Below, in pieces: positions 2,007 to 59,986 of a stretch of 64,000 nucleotides of DNA (within the stretch, counting starts at the first letter, position 1; each line of letters starts with the position of its first letter). The position numbers were made by a program, and so were the translations under genes. Where the stretch lies: assembly GCA_947627765.1 (NCBI GenBank), contig CANQXA010000003.1, forward strand, positions 12,713 to 76,712, given 5' to 3'. Source of the stretch: an uncultured Clostridia bacterium (lineage in GTDB: Bacteria; Bacillota; Clostridia; Christensenellales; Borkfalkiaceae). The notes beneath the pieces were generated by a model. That model was not told the origin of the DNA, did no database searches, and saw nothing but the letters and a program-made list of their open reading frames with translations.

Positions 2007-2036
2007 ATTATACCATTTCTATGCAAGCCATGTCAA
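2007..2036 (-). promoter_or_regulatory. Candidate sigma-A promoter for the membrane-protein/MoxR operon
   Basis: Minus strand reads TTGACA (2036-2031), 18 nt, TGgTATAAT (-10 at 2012-2007). The -10 lies inside the perfect palindrome GGTATAATTATACC (2001-2014). The -35 lies inside ATGTCA-7-TGACAT. Confidence 0.4.
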
Positions 2037-24354: not shown

Positions 24355-24472
24355 AACATCTTTCTTTTCTCATCCGGACTATACCGTCGGTACGGGAATT
24401 TCACCCGTTCGGGAGCCAAAGCTCTTAGCAGACTATACTGCCGGTGGAGAATTTCACTCCGCCCCAAAGAAT
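24355..24472 (-). promoter_or_regulatory. FMN riboswitch (RFN element)
   Basis: Minus strand: UUCUUUGGGGCGGAGUGAAAUUCUCCACCGGCAGUAUAGUCUGCUAAGAGC..CGGGUGAAAUUCCCGUACCGACGGUAUAGUCCGGAUGAGAAAAGAAAG. Matches the remembered RFN consensus (GGGGCAGGGUGAAAUUCCC.ACCGGCGGUA ... GCCGACAGU.AAGUCUGGAUG.GAGAAG). Confidence 0.85.
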
Positions 24473-24487
24473 ATTCGATCGTGGGAT

Positions 24488-24516
24488 ATTATAATACGGC
24501 GGGACGGGTTTGTCAA
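24488..24516 (-). promoter_or_regulatory. Consensus sigma-A promoter driving FMN riboswitch-ribU
   Basis: Minus strand: TTGACA (24516-24511), 17 nt, TATAAT (24493-24488). Confidence 0.6.
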
Positions 24517-47111: not shown

Positions 47112-47140
47112 TTGACAACCGCCGCATTCCGTATTATAAT
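47112..47140 (+). promoter_or_regulatory. Consensus sigma-A promoter for the 156-aa membrane protein gene
   Basis: TTGACA (47112-47117), 17 nt, TATAAT (47135-47140). SD GGGGGA precedes ATG 47170. Confidence 0.55.
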
Positions 47141-52722: not shown

Positions 52723-52812
52723 AAAAAATTTTCCTGTTTTCGGTCACCTTGCCTCCCTTCGGCGGGGCTTCTATGGTACAATCGGATCGCGGCGGGGATC
52801 GAGGTGTAATCA

Positions 52813-53340
52813 TTGTCGTTTTTACAGCTCATGAGCGCATTCCGTTTCTTCGGGGCGGACGTGCTCCTCATCGCATTCGGGGTGACCTTCACCGTGTCGC
52901 TCCTCAAAAAGACGGTCTTAAAATCTCTACCCAAAAAGGCGTTCGTCTTCCTGCCTTTTCTCGTCGGACTCGTATACTACGCACTGTGGCGCGTCCTCAT
53001 CACTCTCAGCTGGGAACCTCTTGCGGGCGGGTTTGCGGTCACGCTCGAGGGCGGATTTGCCTGCGGCTGCGCGGCTACGCTCTACTACGTCGTCTACGAA
53101 CAATTCCTGCGCAAGAAAAAGGTATCTCCGCTCCTCCCGCTTCTCGGATTTCTTCCCGAAGACAAGCGGGAGACGGCGGCGCAAGAACTCTACCAAGGCG
53201 CCCTCAAGACGGAACGCGAAGAGCGGGAAGAATACTTCCGTTCGGCGCTTCCCGCCTATTGCGACCCACCCATGTCCGAAGAAGAGCTCTCGGAAATCGC
53301 AAAGCTCCTCGCGGATTATCTCTTGGAGCTGGGTCTGTGA
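52813..53340 (+). CDS. Hypothetical membrane protein (175 aa)
   Basis: TTG start 6 nt after GAGGTG. Three to four hydrophobic helices, then a charged C-terminal tail. Confidence 0.55.
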   Translation: MSFLQLMSAFRFFGADVLLIAFGVTFTVSLLKKTVLKSLPKKAFVFLPFLVGLVYYALWRVLITLSWEPLAGGFAVTLEGGFACGCAATLYYVVYEQFLRKKKVSPLLPLLGFLPEDKRETAAQELYQGALKTEREEREEYFRSALPAYCDPPMSEEELSEIAKLLADYLLELGL

Positions 53341-53348
53341 CCGTCTTT

Positions 53349-53378
53349 CCCCCTGCCCGCCATCGGGCAGGGGGTTTT
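53349..53378 (+). terminator. Intrinsic terminator
   Basis: Perfect 11-bp stem CCCCCTGCCCG-ccat-CGGGCAGGGGG followed by TTTT. Confidence 0.65.
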
Positions 53379-53414
53379 CGGTATAAAAAAGCCGCCGCGT
53401 CCCATACTTCTTTC

Positions 53415-54848
53415 ATGAAAAACGTCGCGGGAGATCTGAACAAAACCAAAGAGGCCCTCAAAAAACTCCTCCCCGCCGAGGATATTCTGACGTTCGGGTT
53501 TACGTCCGCGCGCGGAATGGAGTTCTGTTGCGTCTTCGCCGACCCGATCACCGACAAGGAGCTTTTGGGCGAGCAAGTGATCCGCGCCCTCTCCGATTAC
53601 GACGGGGAAGCGAAGGCGGAGGAGGTCGCAAAGAAGCTGACTTCCCCCGAGACGAAGACGGAGCCCTCCCTCGAAGCGCTCGCCGATGAGGTCCTGCTCG
53701 GCAATCCCGTGCTCCTCTTTGCGGGCATGGATGCCGCCGTTGTGGTCGGAACCAAAAAAATCTTCACGCGCGCCATCTCGGAGCCCTCCACCGACGTCGC
53801 CGTCAAAGGTCCCCGCGAGGGCTTCATCGAGGACTTCAAAACGAACACTTCCCTCGTCCGCCGCCGCTTCAAGACGGGCGATCTCAGGATCGAGACTTCG
53901 GAAGTAGGCAAGCGCTCGAAGACGGTCGTCGCCGTCTGCTATCTCGACGGCATCGCCCCCGCCTCCGCCGTGGAGGAAGTGAAAAAGAAGCTCCAAGAGA
54001 TCGAGATCGACTACATCCCCGATTCCTCCTACCTCACCCACTTCCTCTCCTCCCGCCCCTATTCCCTCGTGAAACAGGTGGGGACGACGGAAAAGCCCGA
54101 CATCTTCTGCGCAAAACTCGCCGAAGGGCGGATCGGGCTCCTCGTGGACGGCTCCCCCATCGCCCTCACCGTGCCCTATCTTCTCATCGAGGACTTCCAA
54201 TCGAGCGAAGACTATTTCGTCCCCGCGTACCGCGCCACCTTCACGCGGCTCTTGCGGCTCTTCGCCCTGATCGTCGCCATCTACCTGCCCGCCTTTTACA
54301 TCGCGGCACAGCTCTTCAAGCTCCAGCTCTTTCCCATCAAGCTCCTGCTCACGATCTCGGGGAGCATCCGCGATATCCCCTTCTCGCCCTCCCTCGAAAT
54401 GCTCCTCGTCCTGCTCGTCTTGGAGGTCTTGAACGAGGCGTCCATCCGTATGCCGAAATACGTGGGAATGGCGCTCAGCGTCGTGGGCGCGCTCGTCCTC
54501 GGGGAGACGGCGGTCTCGGCGGGATTCGTTTCGACGCCTGCGATCATCATCATCGCCTTCTCGGGCATCGGGCTCTACGCCGTCCCCAACCTCATTGAAC
54601 AGACCAGCGTCCTCCGCCTCGCCATGCTCCTGATCGCGGGCAGTGTGGGCACCTACGGGATCATCCTCGCGACGGCGTTTATCATCCTCTATCTCGTGAC
54701 GACGGAGAACTTCGGCACGCCGCTCGTCGCACCCTATGCGCCCGTCGTCGGAAGCGATCTCCGCGACTCCCTCATCAAATACAATTTGGGCTCCCTCAAA
54801 CAGCGTCCCAAGACGCTTCGCAGTCCCAACCGCAGGAGGCTTGCATGA
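53415..54848 (+). CDS. Spore germinant receptor subunit A (GerAA/GerKA family)
   Basis: Internal ATG of track ORF 52749..54848. GPREGFIEDFKTNTSLVRRR.., VAVCYLDGIA.., and a C-terminal multi-TM region, all typical of the GerA family. Confidence 0.85.
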   Translation: MKNVAGDLNKTKEALKKLLPAEDILTFGFTSARGMEFCCVFADPITDKELLGEQVIRALSDYDGEAKAEEVAKKLTSPETKTEPSLEALADEVLLGNPVLLFAGMDAAVVVGTKKIFTRAISEPSTDVAVKGPREGFIEDFKTNTSLVRRRFKTGDLRIETSEVGKRSKTVVAVCYLDGIAPASAVEEVKKKLQEIEIDYIPDSSYLTHFLSSRPYSLVKQVGTTEKPDIFCAKLAEGRIGLLVDGSPIALTVPYLLIEDFQSSEDYFVPAYRATFTRLLRLFALIVAIYLPAFYIAAQLFKLQLFPIKLLLTISGSIRDIPFSPSLEMLLVLLVLEVLNEASIRMPKYVGMALSVVGALVLGETAVSAGFVSTPAIIIIAFSGIGLYAVPNLIEQTSVLRLAMLLIAGSVGTYGIILATAFIILYLVTTENFGTPLVAPYAPVVGSDLRDSLIKYNLGSLKQRPKTLRSPNRRRLA

Positions 54849-55918: not shown

Positions 55919-57110
55919 ATTTCTGCACACCGTGCCCATGAAACTCTACCTCATCCTCACCGCGGTCATTCTCTTCTCCTTCTTTTCCAACGACTTCTCT
56001 TTGGTAGACATCCAAAAGACGGCGGTCATCCTCGCCGCGGGGATCGACCGCACCGACAGCGGATTCGCCCTGACCGCCCAGCTCGCCGTCCCCAAGGGGG
56101 AGGACCGCACGACGGGCGGCACGTCGTCCGTCGAGATCGAGACGGAGGGCGAGACGGTCTCGGACTGCGTCACCCTCATCTATACGAAGACGGGCTGGGT
56201 GCCCAAGCTCGTCTTCTGCGATCTCATCGTGATCGGGGAGGAGGCGGCGAAAGAGGACGTCGTCTCCTACCTCAACTACTTTTTGCGCAACGACTATATG
56301 CCGGATACCTGTCTTCTCGCCGTCTGCGAGGGCAAGGCGCGCGATCTCATCTCCTCGCAGAGCGCCCTCGAAGATACCTCCTCCCTCGCCGTCTCCCAGC
56401 TCTTTTCGGACGCCGCGCTCAAATCGGGGCGGGTGGTCTCCAAGACGCTCAAAGACTTCGCCATCGACTATTACGGCGTTTCGGCGAGCAGTTGTCTGCC
56501 CTACGTCCGCAAGACGGAACAGCCCGACGGTCAAGGGGGAAGTTCGGGCGGTGCGGGCGGCGGCTCGGGAAGCGCGGGCGCGCAGGATACGGGAAGCGGT
56601 TCGGGCGCGCCCCAAATTTACAGCGCGGAGGAGACAGCCCTCTTCGCGGAGGGGAAACTCGTCGCCGTCCTGCCGAGAGAGCAGACCCTCGCCTACAATC
56701 TCATCGGGGGGAAGGTGGTCTCGGGGACGTTCAACGCCGAAGAAAAGGGAAAACCCATCACGCTGACCGTCATCCGCGACAAGGGCAAGGTAAGCCTGAA
56801 ATTGGAGAAGGAGCCCGTCGCCGAGCTCTCCCTCGATCTCACCTTGCGCCTCTGTTGCCGTAGCATCTCGGCGCCCATCGAAGACATCGCTTCCGACCGG
56901 CTCTCCGACGAGGCGATCCAAAATGCGGGAACGGTCGTCCGCGGCTATCTCGAAGACCTCTTCAAAACGTGCAAAGAGAGCGGTTGCGATCTCTTCCTCC
57001 TCAAACGGAGCCTCTACCGCTCCTCCCTCAAAAAGTTCGCCGCCCGCAAAGACAGCCTGCTCGAAACGGTGACGCCCGAGATCAAAGTCAAAGTCCGTTC
57101 GATGAAATGA
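55905..57110 (+). CDS. Spore germinant receptor subunit C (Ger(x)C family)
   Basis: 401 aa with GTG start. VILAAGIDRTD.., GWVPKLVFCDLIVIGEEAAKEDV.., and C-terminal ..DLFLLKRSLYRSSLKKF.. resemble GerAC. Gene order is A-B-C. Confidence 0.75.
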   Translation: MKLRKFLHTVPMKLYLILTAVILFSFFSNDFSLVDIQKTAVILAAGIDRTDSGFALTAQLAVPKGEDRTTGGTSSVEIETEGETVSDCVTLIYTKTGWVPKLVFCDLIVIGEEAAKEDVVSYLNYFLRNDYMPDTCLLAVCEGKARDLISSQSALEDTSSLAVSQLFSDAALKSGRVVSKTLKDFAIDYYGVSASSCLPYVRKTEQPDGQGGSSGGAGGGSGSAGAQDTGSGSGAPQIYSAEETALFAEGKLVAVLPREQTLAYNLIGGKVVSGTFNAEEKGKPITLTVIRDKGKVSLKLEKEPVAELSLDLTLRLCCRSISAPIEDIASDRLSDEAIQNAGTVVRGYLEDLFKTCKESGCDLFLLKRSLYRSSLKKFAARKDSLLETVTPEIKVKVRSMK

Positions 57111-57148
57111 GCTCCGAAAAAAAAGTAAAAAAAGTTTTTCCCAAACTA

Positions 57149-57176
57149 TTGACAGATCGGCAAAACGTGTTATAAT
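57149..57176 (+). promoter_or_regulatory. Strong sigma-A-type promoter with extended -10, driving a non-coding interval
   Basis: TTGACA (57149-57154), 16 nt, TGtTATAAT (-10 at 57171-57176). A/T-rich tract upstream. Confidence 0.6.
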
Positions 57177-57182
57177 AAAGGC

Positions 57183-57587
57183 ACAAAAGGAAAATAACTA
57201 ACAAGAAACGTTATTTTCCAACAAAGGCGGGATACTCCGATGGAAATGTAAAACACCGGACAAAAAGCTGAGATAACGGACGGGAAAGTTCGTACTCAAA
57301 GAAGGATGCCGCGAAAGCGGCGTCCCGACCCGCGGATTTCATATCGGAGGTACAACGATATGAGTGTCTTTCAAGCCCGAAAGATCAGGTAAAAGGAGGA
57401 TACGCCAATGTACTTCGATAAGAAAGGGGCTGAAACGTAATACCGGAACCGAAGGGACGCGGCAAGCAACAGAACGCGTAAGGCAATGAGCCTGTAGAAG
57501 AACGGGGTTTCGGAACAGACCGATCGCCTCTCTACAACTGAATTTCGGAATAGATTCCCCCCGTGCAGAGCGCGGGGGTTGTTTTTT
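57183..57587 (+). ncRNA. Candidate ~0.4-kb structured non-coding RNA (class unknown), bounded by its own promoter and terminator
   Basis: No + strand ORF of 60 aa or more. Perfect hairpins at 57189-57219, 57270-57297, 57304-57325 (GAAA tetraloop) and 57339-57363. Ends at the terminator 57558-57587. Confidence 0.4.
57558..57587 (+). terminator. Intrinsic terminator of the orphan transcription unit
   Basis: CCCCCGTG-cagag-CGCGGGGG (8 bp including one G-U) followed by TTGTTTTTT. Confidence 0.7.
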
Positions 57588-57654
57588 GCTTCGTTTGCCC
57601 CGCCGCTCCGCCTGCTTCCCCGAAGTGGCAGTAAGTCAGCCGCTTTCCCCCTTC

Positions 57655-57709
57655 TTCGACATTCATAGACCGTTTCCCCTTCGCCCTGCGGGATCTTTTA
57701 TGGTATACT
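57655..57709 (+). promoter_or_regulatory. Candidate spoIIE promoter: Spo0A-box-like TTCGACA plus extended -10, no good -35
   Basis: TTCGACA (57655-57661) is the reverse complement of the 0A box TGTCGAA. TGgTATACT gives a -10 at 57704-57709. The -35 position reads TCGCCC. Confidence 0.35.
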
Positions 57710-57730
57710 GCCCGAAAAAAAGGGGGCATT

Positions 57731-59986
57731 ATGAAACGTCTTCCCCTTCGCTCGGCGCCCAAATATCTTTTGCTCGGCGCGGGAATGGTCTTTTTGAATT
57801 TTGCACTGCCCTGCCGCGAACCGCTCTCCTTCGCGCTCTTCTACGCCGCGCTCTCGTGCGGATTCGATCCCTTCCTTACGTCCGCGCTCTATCTCGCCTC
57901 CTCCGCCGTCTCCCTGACGCTCGCCGCCTCGCTCTCCGCGGCGGTCCAAGCCCTCTTCCTTTTACTTCTCGCCATTCTCTATGCCCGTTTCCGCCGCAAA
58001 CAGGGCTTCGAACGCTTCCTCTTCGCCCTGCTCGCACAGCTCCCCTTTGTCTTTTTGTTCCCCCATACGGGCTATGCACTGCTGCCCATATCCCCCGTCC
58101 TGCAAAAGCTCGTGATCGCGGCGGCGATCCTCCTCTGCTCTGCCCTGTTTGAGGGCGGGCTCAACGCGCTCCTCTGGCGCGCACTGCGTTCCCGCCTCAG
58201 TGCGATCGAGCTGACGGAATTGGTTTTGATGTGGTTACTTACGGGCATGGGTATCCTCTTTTCGCTCGGACCCATCGCTTTCACCTGTCTTTCGCTCGCC
58301 GCACTCCTCGCCTCCGTCCTCGTCTTCGGCACCTCCGCCTGCATTCCTTTTTCCGCCGCCCTGTCCCTGCCCGCCGCCGTCTCTTCTGTCTCTCCCGCCC
58401 CCATCGCCGCCTATGTGGTCTACGCCTCCTTCGCCCTTCTCCTCCTTCCTTACGGAAAATTCGCCGCCGCGCTCTCCCTCCCCCTCGCCCATGCCGCGGC
58501 GATGTACTTCGAAGGACTTTATGCGGGGCCGGTGCTTGCGATCGTATGGAATCTTCTCGCGGGCTTCCTGCCGGCCCTCATCGTCTTTGTGCCCGACCGT
58601 TTCCTCAACCGCCTCAAAAAAACCCTGCTCTTCTACCGCGAACGCTCTCTGCCGCGCATCGCCGTCAACCGCAGCCGCCGCGCCGTCGGGGAACAGCTCT
58701 ACGAGGTATCCGCGCTCTTCCGCGAGATCGAGAGCGCCCTCGCCCTCGACAGCGGTTACGATCCCGCCGAAGGGCTCCGCGGCAAGATCTACTCCTCGCT
58801 CTGCGCGTCTTGCCGCAACCGCCGCTCCTGCGGGGATACGCTCGCCGCCGAACTCGATAAGCTCATCGCGGTCGGCAAGGCGAAGGGGAGCGTCAACCTC
58901 ATCGACCTTCCCCTCGCCCTCTCCTCCAAGTGCGTCAATACGACAGGCCTCCTGTTCTGCGTCAACAAACATCTCGCCGCCTACACCCGCGTTGCGACGG
59001 AGCTCGAAACGGCGCGGGAGGGCAGGATGCTTCTCGCCCGCCAAGCGCACGGGGTGAGCGAGATCCTCAAAAACATGGCGCTCGAACAGAGCGAGGAATA
59101 CGTCTTTACGGAGGAAGAACACATCCTCTCCGCGGCGCTTGCGCGGGAGGGACTGCTCAGTACGGAGATCCTCCTCTACGGCGAGGGCGACCGCATGACG
59201 GTGACCGTCACCCTCGAGAGCAAGGCGAGCGGAAAGCGGCTGGCGCGGATCGCGGGCGAAGCGCTGAAAACTCCCTTCTCGCTCGCCGAAAAGATCCCCC
59301 TCACCGAGGACCGCGCCTGCTTCGTTTTGAGGCGGAAGCCCGAGTTCGACGCGGCGTTCGGCATCGCTTCCCGCCCCAAGGACGGCGAACCCGCGAGCGG
59401 GGATACCCATTCCATCCTCAAAATCGACGAACGCCGTTTCCTCGTCGCCCTCTCGGACGGCATGGGGAGCGGCGAACGGGCGCGGGAGGTCTCCGACCGC
59501 ACCCTCTCCCTGCTCGAGAGCTTCTATAAGGCGAAGATGCCCTCCGAGACCGTCCTTTCCACGGTCAACAACCTCATTGCCTTCTCGTCGGACGAGATCT
59601 TTTCCTGTCTCGACGTCGCCGCCGTCGATCTCGACACGGGGCGCGCGGACGTCGTGAAGATCGGCTCCCCGCCCGCCTTCATCCTCTCGGGGGAAACCTT
59701 GCAGGTGCTCGAAGGGGAATCCCTCCCCATGGGCGCGGTGGAGACCGTCCGCCCCGCCTGTCTCAAAGCCGAGATGAAGCCCGACGACTTCCTCATTCTG
59801 ATGTCCGACGGCGTGACCGCGGCGTTCGGCTCCTCTTCGGAGCTCTGCGCCTATCTCTCCCGTCTCCATCCGCTCAATCCGCAGTCCCTCGCCGAGGAGA
59901 TCTTGAAGTCGGCGCTCGGGCGGTACCGCGGACGGGCGGAGGACGACATGACCGTACTCGCCGTCAAACTTTCGGGGAGCGCATGA
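57731..59986 (+). CDS. spoIIE: Stage II sporulation protein E (membrane PP2C phosphatase)
   Basis: 751 aa. About 10 N-terminal TM helices, a central regulatory region, and a C-terminal PP2C domain (SGDTHSI.., ALSDGMGSGERA, DDMTVLAV). Confidence 0.9.
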   Translation: MKRLPLRSAPKYLLLGAGMVFLNFALPCREPLSFALFYAALSCGFDPFLTSALYLASSAVSLTLAASLSAAVQALFLLLLAILYARFRRKQGFERFLFALLAQLPFVFLFPHTGYALLPISPVLQKLVIAAAILLCSALFEGGLNALLWRALRSRLSAIELTELVLMWLLTGMGILFSLGPIAFTCLSLAALLASVLVFGTSACIPFSAALSLPAAVSSVSPAPIAAYVVYASFALLLLPYGKFAAALSLPLAHAAAMYFEGLYAGPVLAIVWNLLAGFLPALIVFVPDRFLNRLKKTLLFYRERSLPRIAVNRSRRAVGEQLYEVSALFREIESALALDSGYDPAEGLRGKIYSSLCASCRNRRSCGDTLAAELDKLIAVGKAKGSVNLIDLPLALSSKCVNTTGLLFCVNKHLAAYTRVATELETAREGRMLLARQAHGVSEILKNMALEQSEEYVFTEEEHILSAALAREGLLSTEILLYGEGDRMTVTVTLESKASGKRLARIAGEALKTPFSLAEKIPLTEDRACFVLRRKPEFDAAFGIASRPKDGEPASGDTHSILKIDERRFLVALSDGMGSGERAREVSDRTLSLLESFYKAKMPSETVLSTVNNLIAFSSDEIFSCLDVAAVDLDTGRADVVKIGSPPAFILSGETLQVLEGESLPMGAVETVRPACLKAEMKPDDFLILMSDGVTAAFGSSSELCAYLSRLHPLNPQSLAEEILKSALGRYRGRAEDDMTVLAVKLSGSA

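Follow-up and report, generated by a model that had tools for sequence, protein, structure and literature searches.

What occupies the gap of about 0.4 kb between a gerA-type germinant-receptor operon and the sporulation gene spoIIE in an uncultured Clostridia bacterium (assembly GCA_947627765.1)? The gap lies in a stretch of 64,000 nucleotides (nt) of contig CANQXA010000003.1 (positions 12,713 to 76,712 of the forward strand), hereafter the window, whose numbering is used throughout unless another locus is named; upstream it is flanked by a GerA / spore permease / GerAC operon ending at 57110 and downstream by SpoIIE beginning at 57731, both assigned with Pfam. An earlier interpretation made from the letters alone (the sequence-only reading) had proposed that the gap holds an orphan promoter-to-terminator unit encoding either a structured RNA of unknown class or a dual-function RNA with two micropeptides. 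The comparative analysis described here leads to a related answer: the unit founds an RNA family that is absent from Rfam and previously undescribed, and with a probability of roughly 60% it is a free-standing, translated dual-function RNA with a sigma-A-type promoter, acting both as a structured RNA and as a micropeptide message.

The unit opens on the + strand with a sigma-70/sigma-A-type promoter at 57149-57176, composed of TTGACA (57149-57154), a 16-nt spacer, and the extended -10 element TGtTATAAT (57168-57176); it matches the consensus at 12 of 12 positions, carries the -10 extension in addition, and is preceded by an A/T-rich tract. The pattern TTGACA-N16-18-TATAAT has four exact occurrences in the window versus 0.00 expected from shuffles, and perfect consensus promoters serve real genes in the source genome, as one of them directly precedes a flavin mononucleotide (FMN) riboswitch. 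An intrinsic terminator at 57558-57587 on the same strand (CCCCCGUGC-AGA-GCGCGGGGG, then a U-run) closes the unit; its stem (57558-57578) comprises 9 bp, 8 of them G-C pairs, and is followed by TTGTTTTTTG. If the -10 box sets the 5' end and the U-run the 3' end, a + strand transcript of about 405 nt (57183-57587) is predicted, and its whole span aligns with homologues (nhmmer profile match 57143-57602, E 1.3e-94). The promoter and terminator of the sequence-only reading were recovered where it had put them, as were its two further claims, that no + strand open reading frame (ORF) of at least 60 amino acids (aa) lies between these signals and that the interval is purine-rich (G+C content 0.37-0.52 versus about 0.6 in the coding flanks). 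The longest + strand ORF has 41 aa (GTG start, 57364-57489) and no Pfam match; a hidden longer protein on either strand was rejected in the same way, and the long antisense ORFs are attributable to the purine-rich sense strand.

As a comparison set, 80 loci encoding SpoIIE relatives (56-68% identity) were retrieved from uncultured Clostridia, Christensenellaceae-like or Candidatus Gallimonas metagenome-assembled genomes, and homologues of the unit were sought by nhmmer, at first using the window sequence as query and later a profile. Full-length units, from the -35 box to the terminator, are present in 56 of the 80 spoIIE loci at one copy per locus, and the window likewise holds a single copy. 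The conserved blocks are the promoter, the 5' hairpin, a hairpin with a GGRAAA loop, CAUAUCGGGAGGUACAACGAUAUG, AAGGAGGAcAcgCCAAUGUAC, GGGGCGGAA, ACAACUGAAU, and the terminator. When metagenomes were scanned for a degenerate pattern that covers both pairs of Shine-Dalgarno (SD) sequence and ATG, 34 loci were returned, 22 of which are family members, although these 22 are no proof that the ORFs are universally present because the retrieval pattern demanded both SD-ATG pairs; 13 form a divergent subfamily, termed type B as distinct from type A. Type B copies (about 570-640 nt) share the promoter and the two-ORF core with type A and also have A(A/C)AACUGAAUA and a terminator, but their 5' domain is longer and different. 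The promoter pattern TTGACA-N(15-19)-TA[TC]AAT is retained in 51 of 53 tabulated full-length copies, and in type B copies too. In all, more than 75 copies were collected; their carriers are Christensenellales-like and Candidatus Gallimonas Clostridia of the gut, sampled from rabbit, mouse, chicken, sheep, and human sources. The gerXC-spoIIE regions of relatives, named by the sequence-only reading as the place to check for conservation, do contain full-length homologues with covarying hairpins.

Copies of the element vary considerably in length. It spans 950-964 nt in L029 and L067 and 650-680 nt in L031, L038, L041, L043, L076, and L079, and some lineages carry insertions of 200-500 nt in the 3' domain, between the second of the two core ORFs (ORF3) and ACAACUGAAU, which split the profile match in two. 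In L059, just a 78-nt 5' fragment of the element follows gerAC (2912-2989, + strand), and a separate exact match to CATTCAGTTGT lies 6 kb away on the opposite strand (at about 9171); this second match may be a rearranged or second copy.

The unit matches no RNA class modeled in Rfam 15, T-boxes and riboswitches included. At gathering score, Rfam 15 gave no match for it, and a permissive search of 57050-57760 (E up to 10) returned five chance-level matches of 17.6-21.8 bits, against thresholds of 42-60. Nine related loci yielded only tRNAs, located elsewhere in those loci, and a type B copy (in L100) yielded nothing at E up to 5; the claim of an unknown class thus withstood the search of all of Rfam that had been recommended to challenge it, both in the window copy and in relatives of either subtype. 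ARAGORN found neither transfer-messenger RNA (tmRNA) nor tRNA in 56000-58500, and a tmRNA identity was also set aside because the ORFs carry canonical SD sequences and AUG codons. Nothing matching was found in the literature on RNAs near spoIIE or on decapeptide-coding dual-function RNAs in Bacillota.

The predicted fold of the RNA is far more stable than that of shuffled sequences, with an energy of -139.3 kcal/mol versus -106.0 +/- 5.7 kcal/mol in shuffles (z = -5.84; 0 of 100 shuffles as good). Since raw MAFFT alignments gave few helices in RNAalifold, the consensus structure was derived by mapping per-sequence base-pair probabilities onto a 35-sequence alignment. Eight local helices emerged, with 85.9% of cells paired versus 32-44% when the 3' partner was slid by 1-3 columns, and with 138 double-change cells versus 37-65 in the slid controls; compensatory changes affect 36 of 51 pairs, and 0 of 500 column shuffles reached any of five measures. 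The 5'-proximal hairpin P1 (57189-57219; GGAAAAUAAC / GUUAUUUUCC, a perfect 10 bp) has double-sided changes in 5 of 10 pairs and 78.9% of cells paired. P3 (57276-57293; ACGGAC-GGGAAA-GUUCGU, with the conserved GGRAAA loop), which RNAalifold also recovers, shows double changes in 5 of 6 pairs (84.7% paired), and P4 (57304-57325), a 9-bp hairpin closed by GAAA, keeps its pairing through variable sequence, with double changes in 7 of 7 pairs (88.1%). P5 (57340-57362; CAUAUC / GAUAUG) is paired in 98.6% of cells and changes UA to AU in seven sequences (CAUAAC/GUUAUG); its invariant loop, GGAGGUA, carries the SD sequence of the first core ORF (SD2, GGAGG at 57346-57350), and its 3' arm carries the AUG, as the sequence-only reading had noticed. 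P6 (57376-57389, helix 5), a small hairpin in the 3' half of ORF2 that abuts the next SD sequence, has double changes in 5 of 5 pairs and 73.1% of cells paired, with one mismatch in the window copy. Downstream of ORF3 follow P7 (57457-57479; ACGCG...CGCGU; 91.4% paired, double changes in 2 of 4 pairs) and the small hairpin P8 (57481-57493; AGGC-AAUGA-GCCU; 78.1%, 3 of 3 pairs), after which other species have insertions of variable length, and lastly the terminator helix, with double changes in 8 of 10 pairs and 91.1% of cells paired.

A scan of all column pairs revealed no stacked long-range pairs and only isolated, phylogeny-type signals, on which grounds long-range or pseudoknot pairings were rejected; the RNA therefore looks like a row of local hairpins and not like a compact multi-junction fold. 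The hairpins that the sequence-only reading had drawn at 57189-57219, 57270-57297 (which encloses P3), 57304-57325, and 57339-57363 thus exist and are supported by covariation, and the structure consists of local hairpins only, no long-range fold having been detected. A hairpin around the ORF3 stop codon appears in some sequences but inconsistently and was discarded, and in type B the predicted pairing (4 bp) between SD2 and a C/U tract is weak. Just 5' of the terminator lies an unpaired C/U-rich tract with the motif ACAACUGAAU (57527-57543, the motif at 57534-57543), of which A.AA...AAU is invariant in type A, while type B copies retain A(A/C)AACUGAAUA; the tract is a candidate seed or protein-binding site.

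The center of the unit is occupied by two ORFs of ten codons each, both on the + strand and both found where the sequence-only reading had placed them, each with its SD sequence. ORF2 (57360-57392, MSVFQARKIR*) follows GGAGG at 57346-57350 with a 9-nt spacer; the second SD sequence, SD3 (AAGGAGGA, 57393-57400), begins directly after the ORF2 stop; and ORF3 (57408-57440, MYFDKKGAET*) starts 8 nt after the GGAGG core. Throughout the family the ORFs are conserved as ORFs, with GGAGG located 7-9 nt upstream of both, and in the SD3 region GG.GG and CC.AUGUAC vary little or not at all. Within the unbiased set of full-length genome copies, 48 of 53 have an SD-led ATGTAC ORF3, and in a stricter re-extraction an SD-led ORF2 with AUG was present in these 48 copies as well. 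Length, stop, and gap statistics were compiled over 70 family sequences. ORF2 has 9-14 codons in 69 of them (22 codons in the other), differs in length by multiples of three, ends in TAG (36), TAA (24), or TGA (10), and shares the C-terminal motif [LRF]K[IL]x. ORF3 is exactly 10 codons long in 63 of 70, with the consensus MY-xxxx-[GR]-[AT]-x-x and the stops TAA (48), TAG (14), and TGA (8). AUG3 follows the ORF2 stop after 15 nt in 59 sequences and after 12 nt in 8, which places both ORFs in one reading frame. Four loci (L054, L057, L060, and L078, at about 1245-2110) have lost both AUG3, changed to ACG, and the ORF2 stop, and instead contain a 29-codon in-frame fusion (MTNFIPREARKISDKEDRPTYNFTEGAQS) that reads through the ORF3 region.

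The sequence comparisons point to strong peptide-level selection on type B ORF2, whose peptide MY[KR]SDLRKL[ATSE] has a ratio of nonsynonymous to synonymous changes (pN/pS) of 0.154 in frame versus 1.48 and 0.71 off frame, a figure based, like the ratios given below, on every pairing among no more than 10-11 related sequences. Synonymous multi-nucleotide swaps occur in it at Arg (AGA/CGG/AGG/CGC), Ser (UCC/UCA/UCG), and Leu (CUG/UUG/UUA) codons, and both type B ORFs begin with MY. Several observations, in addition to the small samples behind these ratios and the biased retrieval of the metagenome copies, weigh against a translated dual-function RNA. Type A ORF2 is weakly constrained (pN/pS 0.69 versus about 1.0), although its C-terminus retains [LRF]K[IL]x, and ORF3, at 0.73-0.78, is near its off-frame values and has no clear coding signature, from which it follows that its conservation lies partly at the nucleotide level; the conserved GGGGCGGAA within it could be an RNA motif. 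In L047 (600-1115), AUG3 is changed to ACG yet the ORF2 stop is kept, leaving no obvious route to ORF3 translation, so that this translation is dispensable somewhere in the family. Functional ten-residue peptides are rare in bacteria. No complement to ACAACUGAAUA was found in the window or in about 120 retrieved loci except for the element's own antisense strand (the target-site sequence for the C/U-rich tract would read 5'-AUUCAGUUGU-3'). Lastly, the promoter, the transcript ends, and translation itself are predictions.

A further short ORF was placed outside the family core since it is seen in type A copies only. A mini-hairpin (GGCGGGA...CUCC) followed by this three-codon ORF1 occupies 57226-57251 on the + strand; ORF1 itself (57240-57251) reads AUG GAA AUG UAA, and an ORF of 1-5 codons is kept in most type A copies. 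The sequence ACUCC[GA]AUG is conserved in type A and was not seen in type B copies on inspection by eye, and changes between GGAG/CUCC and GGAC/GUCC in the mini-hairpin were likewise noted by eye only.

The genomic placement of the unit supports its independence from both neighbors. Among 51 loci with the unit between gerAC and spoIIE, it is co-oriented in 37 and inverted in place, on the minus strand, in 14 (L002, L031, L038, L041, L043, L046, L051, L052, L055, L061, L062, L068, L074, and L076). As these 14 loci fall in several peptide groups, more than one inversion event is suggested; invertase-type flanking inverted repeats were considered as the cause, and none were found around the window copy. 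At some of the reverse loci only 1-48 nt separate the gerAC stop from the terminator end, and the terminator of reverse-oriented units may act bidirectionally. Across the 80 loci, GerAC and the element are both present in 51 and both absent in 23; one locus has GerAC only (L004, where spoIIE follows gerAC directly) and five have the element only, several of these at contig ends. GerAC-based look-ups found the element directly after gerAC in five of five cases. In L115 it follows gerAC, and its other neighbor is an oligopeptide ATP-binding cassette (ABC) ATPase gene instead of spoIIE; in six type B loci it also follows gerAC, with spoIIE upstream of gerAA in L110; and in two further type B loci (L082 and L083) it sits among unrelated metabolic genes with no ger genes nearby. 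The downstream neighbor accordingly differs by locus, being spoIIE, the convergent gerAC 3' end (14 of 51), or an ABC ATPase, PHP-domain, or FGGY kinase gene. Given that the unit mostly follows gerAC yet is found elsewhere in L082 and L083, it is viewed as a free-standing gene with frequent, ancient, but non-obligatory gerA-type synteny. The independence claimed by the sequence-only reading is upheld by a promoter-body-terminator block that persists in 56 of 80 loci, in either orientation, and away from spoIIE; its idea of a placement between germination and sporulation genes holds for the gerA-type operon, adjacency to which is conserved, and fails for spoIIE, which is not the conserved partner.

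If the unit is indeed a free-standing dual-function RNA, a plausible sequence of events can be outlined. Transcription would proceed from the constitutive-type consensus promoter and end at the unit's own intrinsic terminator, with P1 and the structured 5' domain stabilizing the transcript. A ribosome would bind SD2, displayed in the P5 loop; because SD2 is exposed but AUG2 is paired, initiation at AUG2 would need P5 to open. Translation of ORF2 would then melt P6 and terminate on or beside SD3, and the ribosome could restart at AUG3, which lies in frame and 15 nt further along, as is typical where termination is coupled to reinitiation. Two outputs can be envisaged, namely the decapeptides (or the ribosome passage that makes them) and the structured RNA body, whose single-stranded C/U-rich and ACAACUGAAU tract could act in trans. 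Together with the structured 5' and 3' domains, this tract suggests a role of the RNA itself beside that of the peptides. A more specific and distinctly tentative version would have a highly expressed bacterial polycistronic micropeptide RNA in which folding gates the translation of two decapeptides, which would rank with the smallest gene products of bacteria, and in which the RNA, the peptides, or both act in trans on germination or the receptor; such action would explain why the gene has stayed by a gerA-type operon across two deeply diverged subfamilies. As a variant of this version, a translation-status sensor RNA tied to no downstream gene may be conceived.

Two alternatives would deny the unit its autonomy. 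One of them makes it a leader or attenuator of spoIIE, with a regulated terminator whose read-through feeds that gene, a notion encouraged in the window by co-orientation, by a distance of only 143 nt to spoIIE, and by leader-peptide-like ORFs ahead of a terminator. Yet the unit is inverted, and hence divergent from spoIIE, in the 14 loci listed above; 24 of the 80 spoIIE loci lack it, among them L001 and L003, which encode the closest SpoIIE relatives, and it is present where spoIIE is not adjacent. The gene, moreover, has promoter-like elements of its own past the terminator, as the sequence-only reading had observed: TTCGACA (57655-57661), which we take to be a perfect Spo0A-box sequence, precedes by about 43 nt an extended -10 element, TGGTATACT (57701-57709), and 46 of 81 loci have a perfect TTCGACA or TGTCGAA in the 200 nt ahead of spoIIE, all of which fits a separate Spo0A-dependent spoIIE promoter. 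The P4 region (57296-57321) is complementary (9/9 plus 9/10) to the spoIIE leader (57639-57659), which is itself complementary to the spoIIE SD region (57717-57726) and could mask it; this pairing was rejected, and the complementarity deemed coincidental, because cognate pairs do no better than non-cognate ones (29.29 versus 29.35 over 34 loci, with ranks from 2 to 34). The orientation and co-occurrence data essentially rule out a leader, in agreement with the sequence-only reading that the unit is not simply that of spoIIE, and the likelihood remaining for this explanation is negligible. The other alternative, that the unit belongs to the gerA-type operon as a 3' untranslated region and terminator module or as distal cistrons read from the ger promoter, accounts well for the tight co-occurrence, the uniform outcome of the GerAC look-ups, the reverse terminators close to the gerAC stop, and the terminator-free gap that separates the gerAC stop from the -35 box in forward loci (about 20-90 nt; 33 nt in the window), across which ger transcripts probably also enter the RNA unit. 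It does not account for a consensus promoter conserved in every orientation, for units convergent with gerAC in 14 of 51 loci, for the lack of the element between gerAC and spoIIE in L004, or for L082 and L083, and is considered very improbable.

Two others accept a free-standing RNA and dispute what it produces. A ribosome-occupancy sensor, in which the mini-ORFs are leader peptides and stalling or a lack of translation refolds the RNA so that it acts in trans through the C/U-rich and ACAACUGAAU tract, overlaps the dual-function reading and differs in output only, the peptides being by-products or nascent-chain sensors. The masking of AUG2 in P5 beside an exposed SD2, the location of P6 within ORF2, and the abutment of the ORF2 stop on SD3 would suit such a device, as would conservation focused at the C-termini ([LRF]K[IL]x-stop and G[AT]xx-stop), which is expected for nascent-chain effects near the peptidyl-transferase center; contexts in which macrolides and chloramphenicol stall ribosomes are similar to K-x-K/R and Ala/Thr-penultimate motifs. 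In the L054 group, the fused ORF also keeps ribosomes crossing the ORF3 region, and a precedent exists in rnTrpL/peTrpL (PMC12612679). Against this, no mutually exclusive pairings are supported, stacked long-range covariation is missing, and the candidate alternatives (ACUCCGAU versus SD2 and GGGGCGGAA versus the terminator arm) do not covary by eye; there is no regulated gene downstream and no trans target in the window or the loci, and selection across the whole of type B ORF2 exceeds a C-terminal stalling motif. The sensor is thus judged unlikely. A purely non-coding structured small RNA (sRNA), whose GGAGG and AUG bind ribosomes or a protein for stability (STAB-SD-like) or sequestration while the ORFs are incidental, is more doubtful again: it draws on the eight covarying hairpins, the conserved loop motifs (GGRAAA and GGGAGGUAC), the nucleotide-level conservation of the SD3-AUG3 spacer and of GGGGCGGAA in ORF3, the ORF3 pN/pS of about 0.75, and the absence of AUG3 from L047, but it leaves unexplained the low pN/pS of type B ORF2 with its synonymous Arg, Leu, and Ser swaps, the interchange of stop codons at fixed positions, the indels in threes, the constant length of ORF3, and the in-frame fusion that compensates for lost AUG3 in the L054 group.

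The dual-function reading finds several counterparts among known systems. Dual-function RNAs include SR1/SR1P of B. subtilis (205 nt), RNAIII/hld (26 aa), and Spot 42/SpfP (15 aa) (PMC12612679). In common with these, the unit is an independent promoter-to-terminator unit whose structured RNA is conserved beyond the coding part and whose ORFs are too short for annotation pipelines; the promoter and terminator appear, at sequence level, in both orientations and several contexts. Unlike them, it carries two cistrons in tandem and in frame, each of about 10 codons and shorter than any of those examples (SR1P has 39 aa); it has no sequence or Rfam relationship with them, and at about 405-640 nt it is at the upper end of their size. 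The attenuator-derived sRNA rnTrpL (E. coli and Sinorhizobium meliloti) bears the 14-aa leader peptide peTrpL and offers a precedent for an RNA and a peptide of about 10-14 aa that both act in trans and respond to translation state (PMC12612679). The likeness lies in a very short leader-type ORF on a terminated small transcript; rnTrpL, however, is a 5' attenuator of the trp operon with Trp codons, whereas the unit has two ORFs, long flanking structured domains, no regulated downstream gene, and no single-codon runs.

Tandem leader peptides also precede inducible resistance genes such as ermA (two leader ORFs), ermC, cat-86, and cmlA, with mini-ORFs of about 8-19 codons; a strong SD sequence, hairpin-embedded mini-ORFs, a structure-controlled start or SD sequence of the next cistron, and conserved C-terminal residues are characteristic of them. 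ORF2 and ORF3 are short SD-led ORFs of the kind used by leader-peptide attenuators (erm, cat, and trp), but those leaders have a regulated resistance gene directly downstream, whereas the unit has no conserved regulated gene on the same strand (the neighbor varies by locus) and no mutually exclusive hairpins were found in it. Large or mid-size RNAs in Rfam such as OLE, ROOL, GOLLD, raiA, HEARO, Clostridiales-1, 6S, RNase P, signal recognition particle RNA, and tmRNA are similar as conserved intergenic RNAs of anaerobic Bacillota with their own promoter and terminator, and differ in that none of their covariance models matches the unit, even at E = 10, and that the unit consists of local hairpins and translated-looking ORFs rather than a multi-junction fold. 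In eukaryotes, the polycistronic micropeptide RNA tarsal-less/polished rice encodes 11-aa peptides from several ORFs of about 10-11 codons that share an N-terminal or core motif; it offers an analogy only, from another domain of life and without homology, and the unit has an SD sequence per ORF and conserved structure. The unit represents a new RNA family and is best placed among the dual-function or small-ORF-bearing sRNAs.

Should the dual-function reading be correct, a well-populated new RNA family would carry two conserved ten-codon genes that annotation pipelines leave uncalled, conserved coding sequences of bacteria would prove to extend to smaller sizes, and a two-cistron case would join the short list of dual-function RNAs. 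Spore-forming anaerobes of the gut, whose RNA biology is almost undescribed, would also gain a candidate regulator beside a germinant-receptor operon. With a family alignment, covarying helices, and defined start codons in hand, these ideas are directly testable once a cultured carrier is found.

Several more conventional identities were considered for the short ORFs and rejected. Type I toxin-antitoxin systems pair a hydrophobic toxin, typically of about 20-60 aa, with an overlapping antisense RNA; the peptides encoded here have 10 aa and are charged and hydrophilic (MSVFQARKIR and MYFDKKGAET), and no antisense promoter was reported in 56800-58000. The germinant-receptor D subunit, a small transmembrane protein (about 60-80 aa) that accompanies certain gerA-family operons, would fit the position after gerAC, but not a longest + strand ORF of 41 aa without a Pfam match. 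A minigene for a ribosomally synthesized and post-translationally modified peptide or of the microcin C type was dismissed since the neighbors are ger, spoIIE, and housekeeping genes and the last residue of both peptides varies.

Elsewhere in the window, the FMN riboswitch (24358-24475, - strand, 104.9 bits; 24358-24516 including its promoter) is the sole Rfam match, and a perfect TTGACA-17-TATAAT at 24488-24516 (-) stands directly upstream of it; other perfect consensus promoters are located at 2007-2036 (-) and 47112-47140 (+). In the upstream operon, the GerA ORF called mechanically at 52749-54848 (+) has 699 aa from a TTG start. Because its GerA domain begins at residue 243 and called GerA homologues have about 477 aa, the true start is probably some 220 codons further downstream, and the upstream part of this ORF may be a separate small gene, as in L117-L120.

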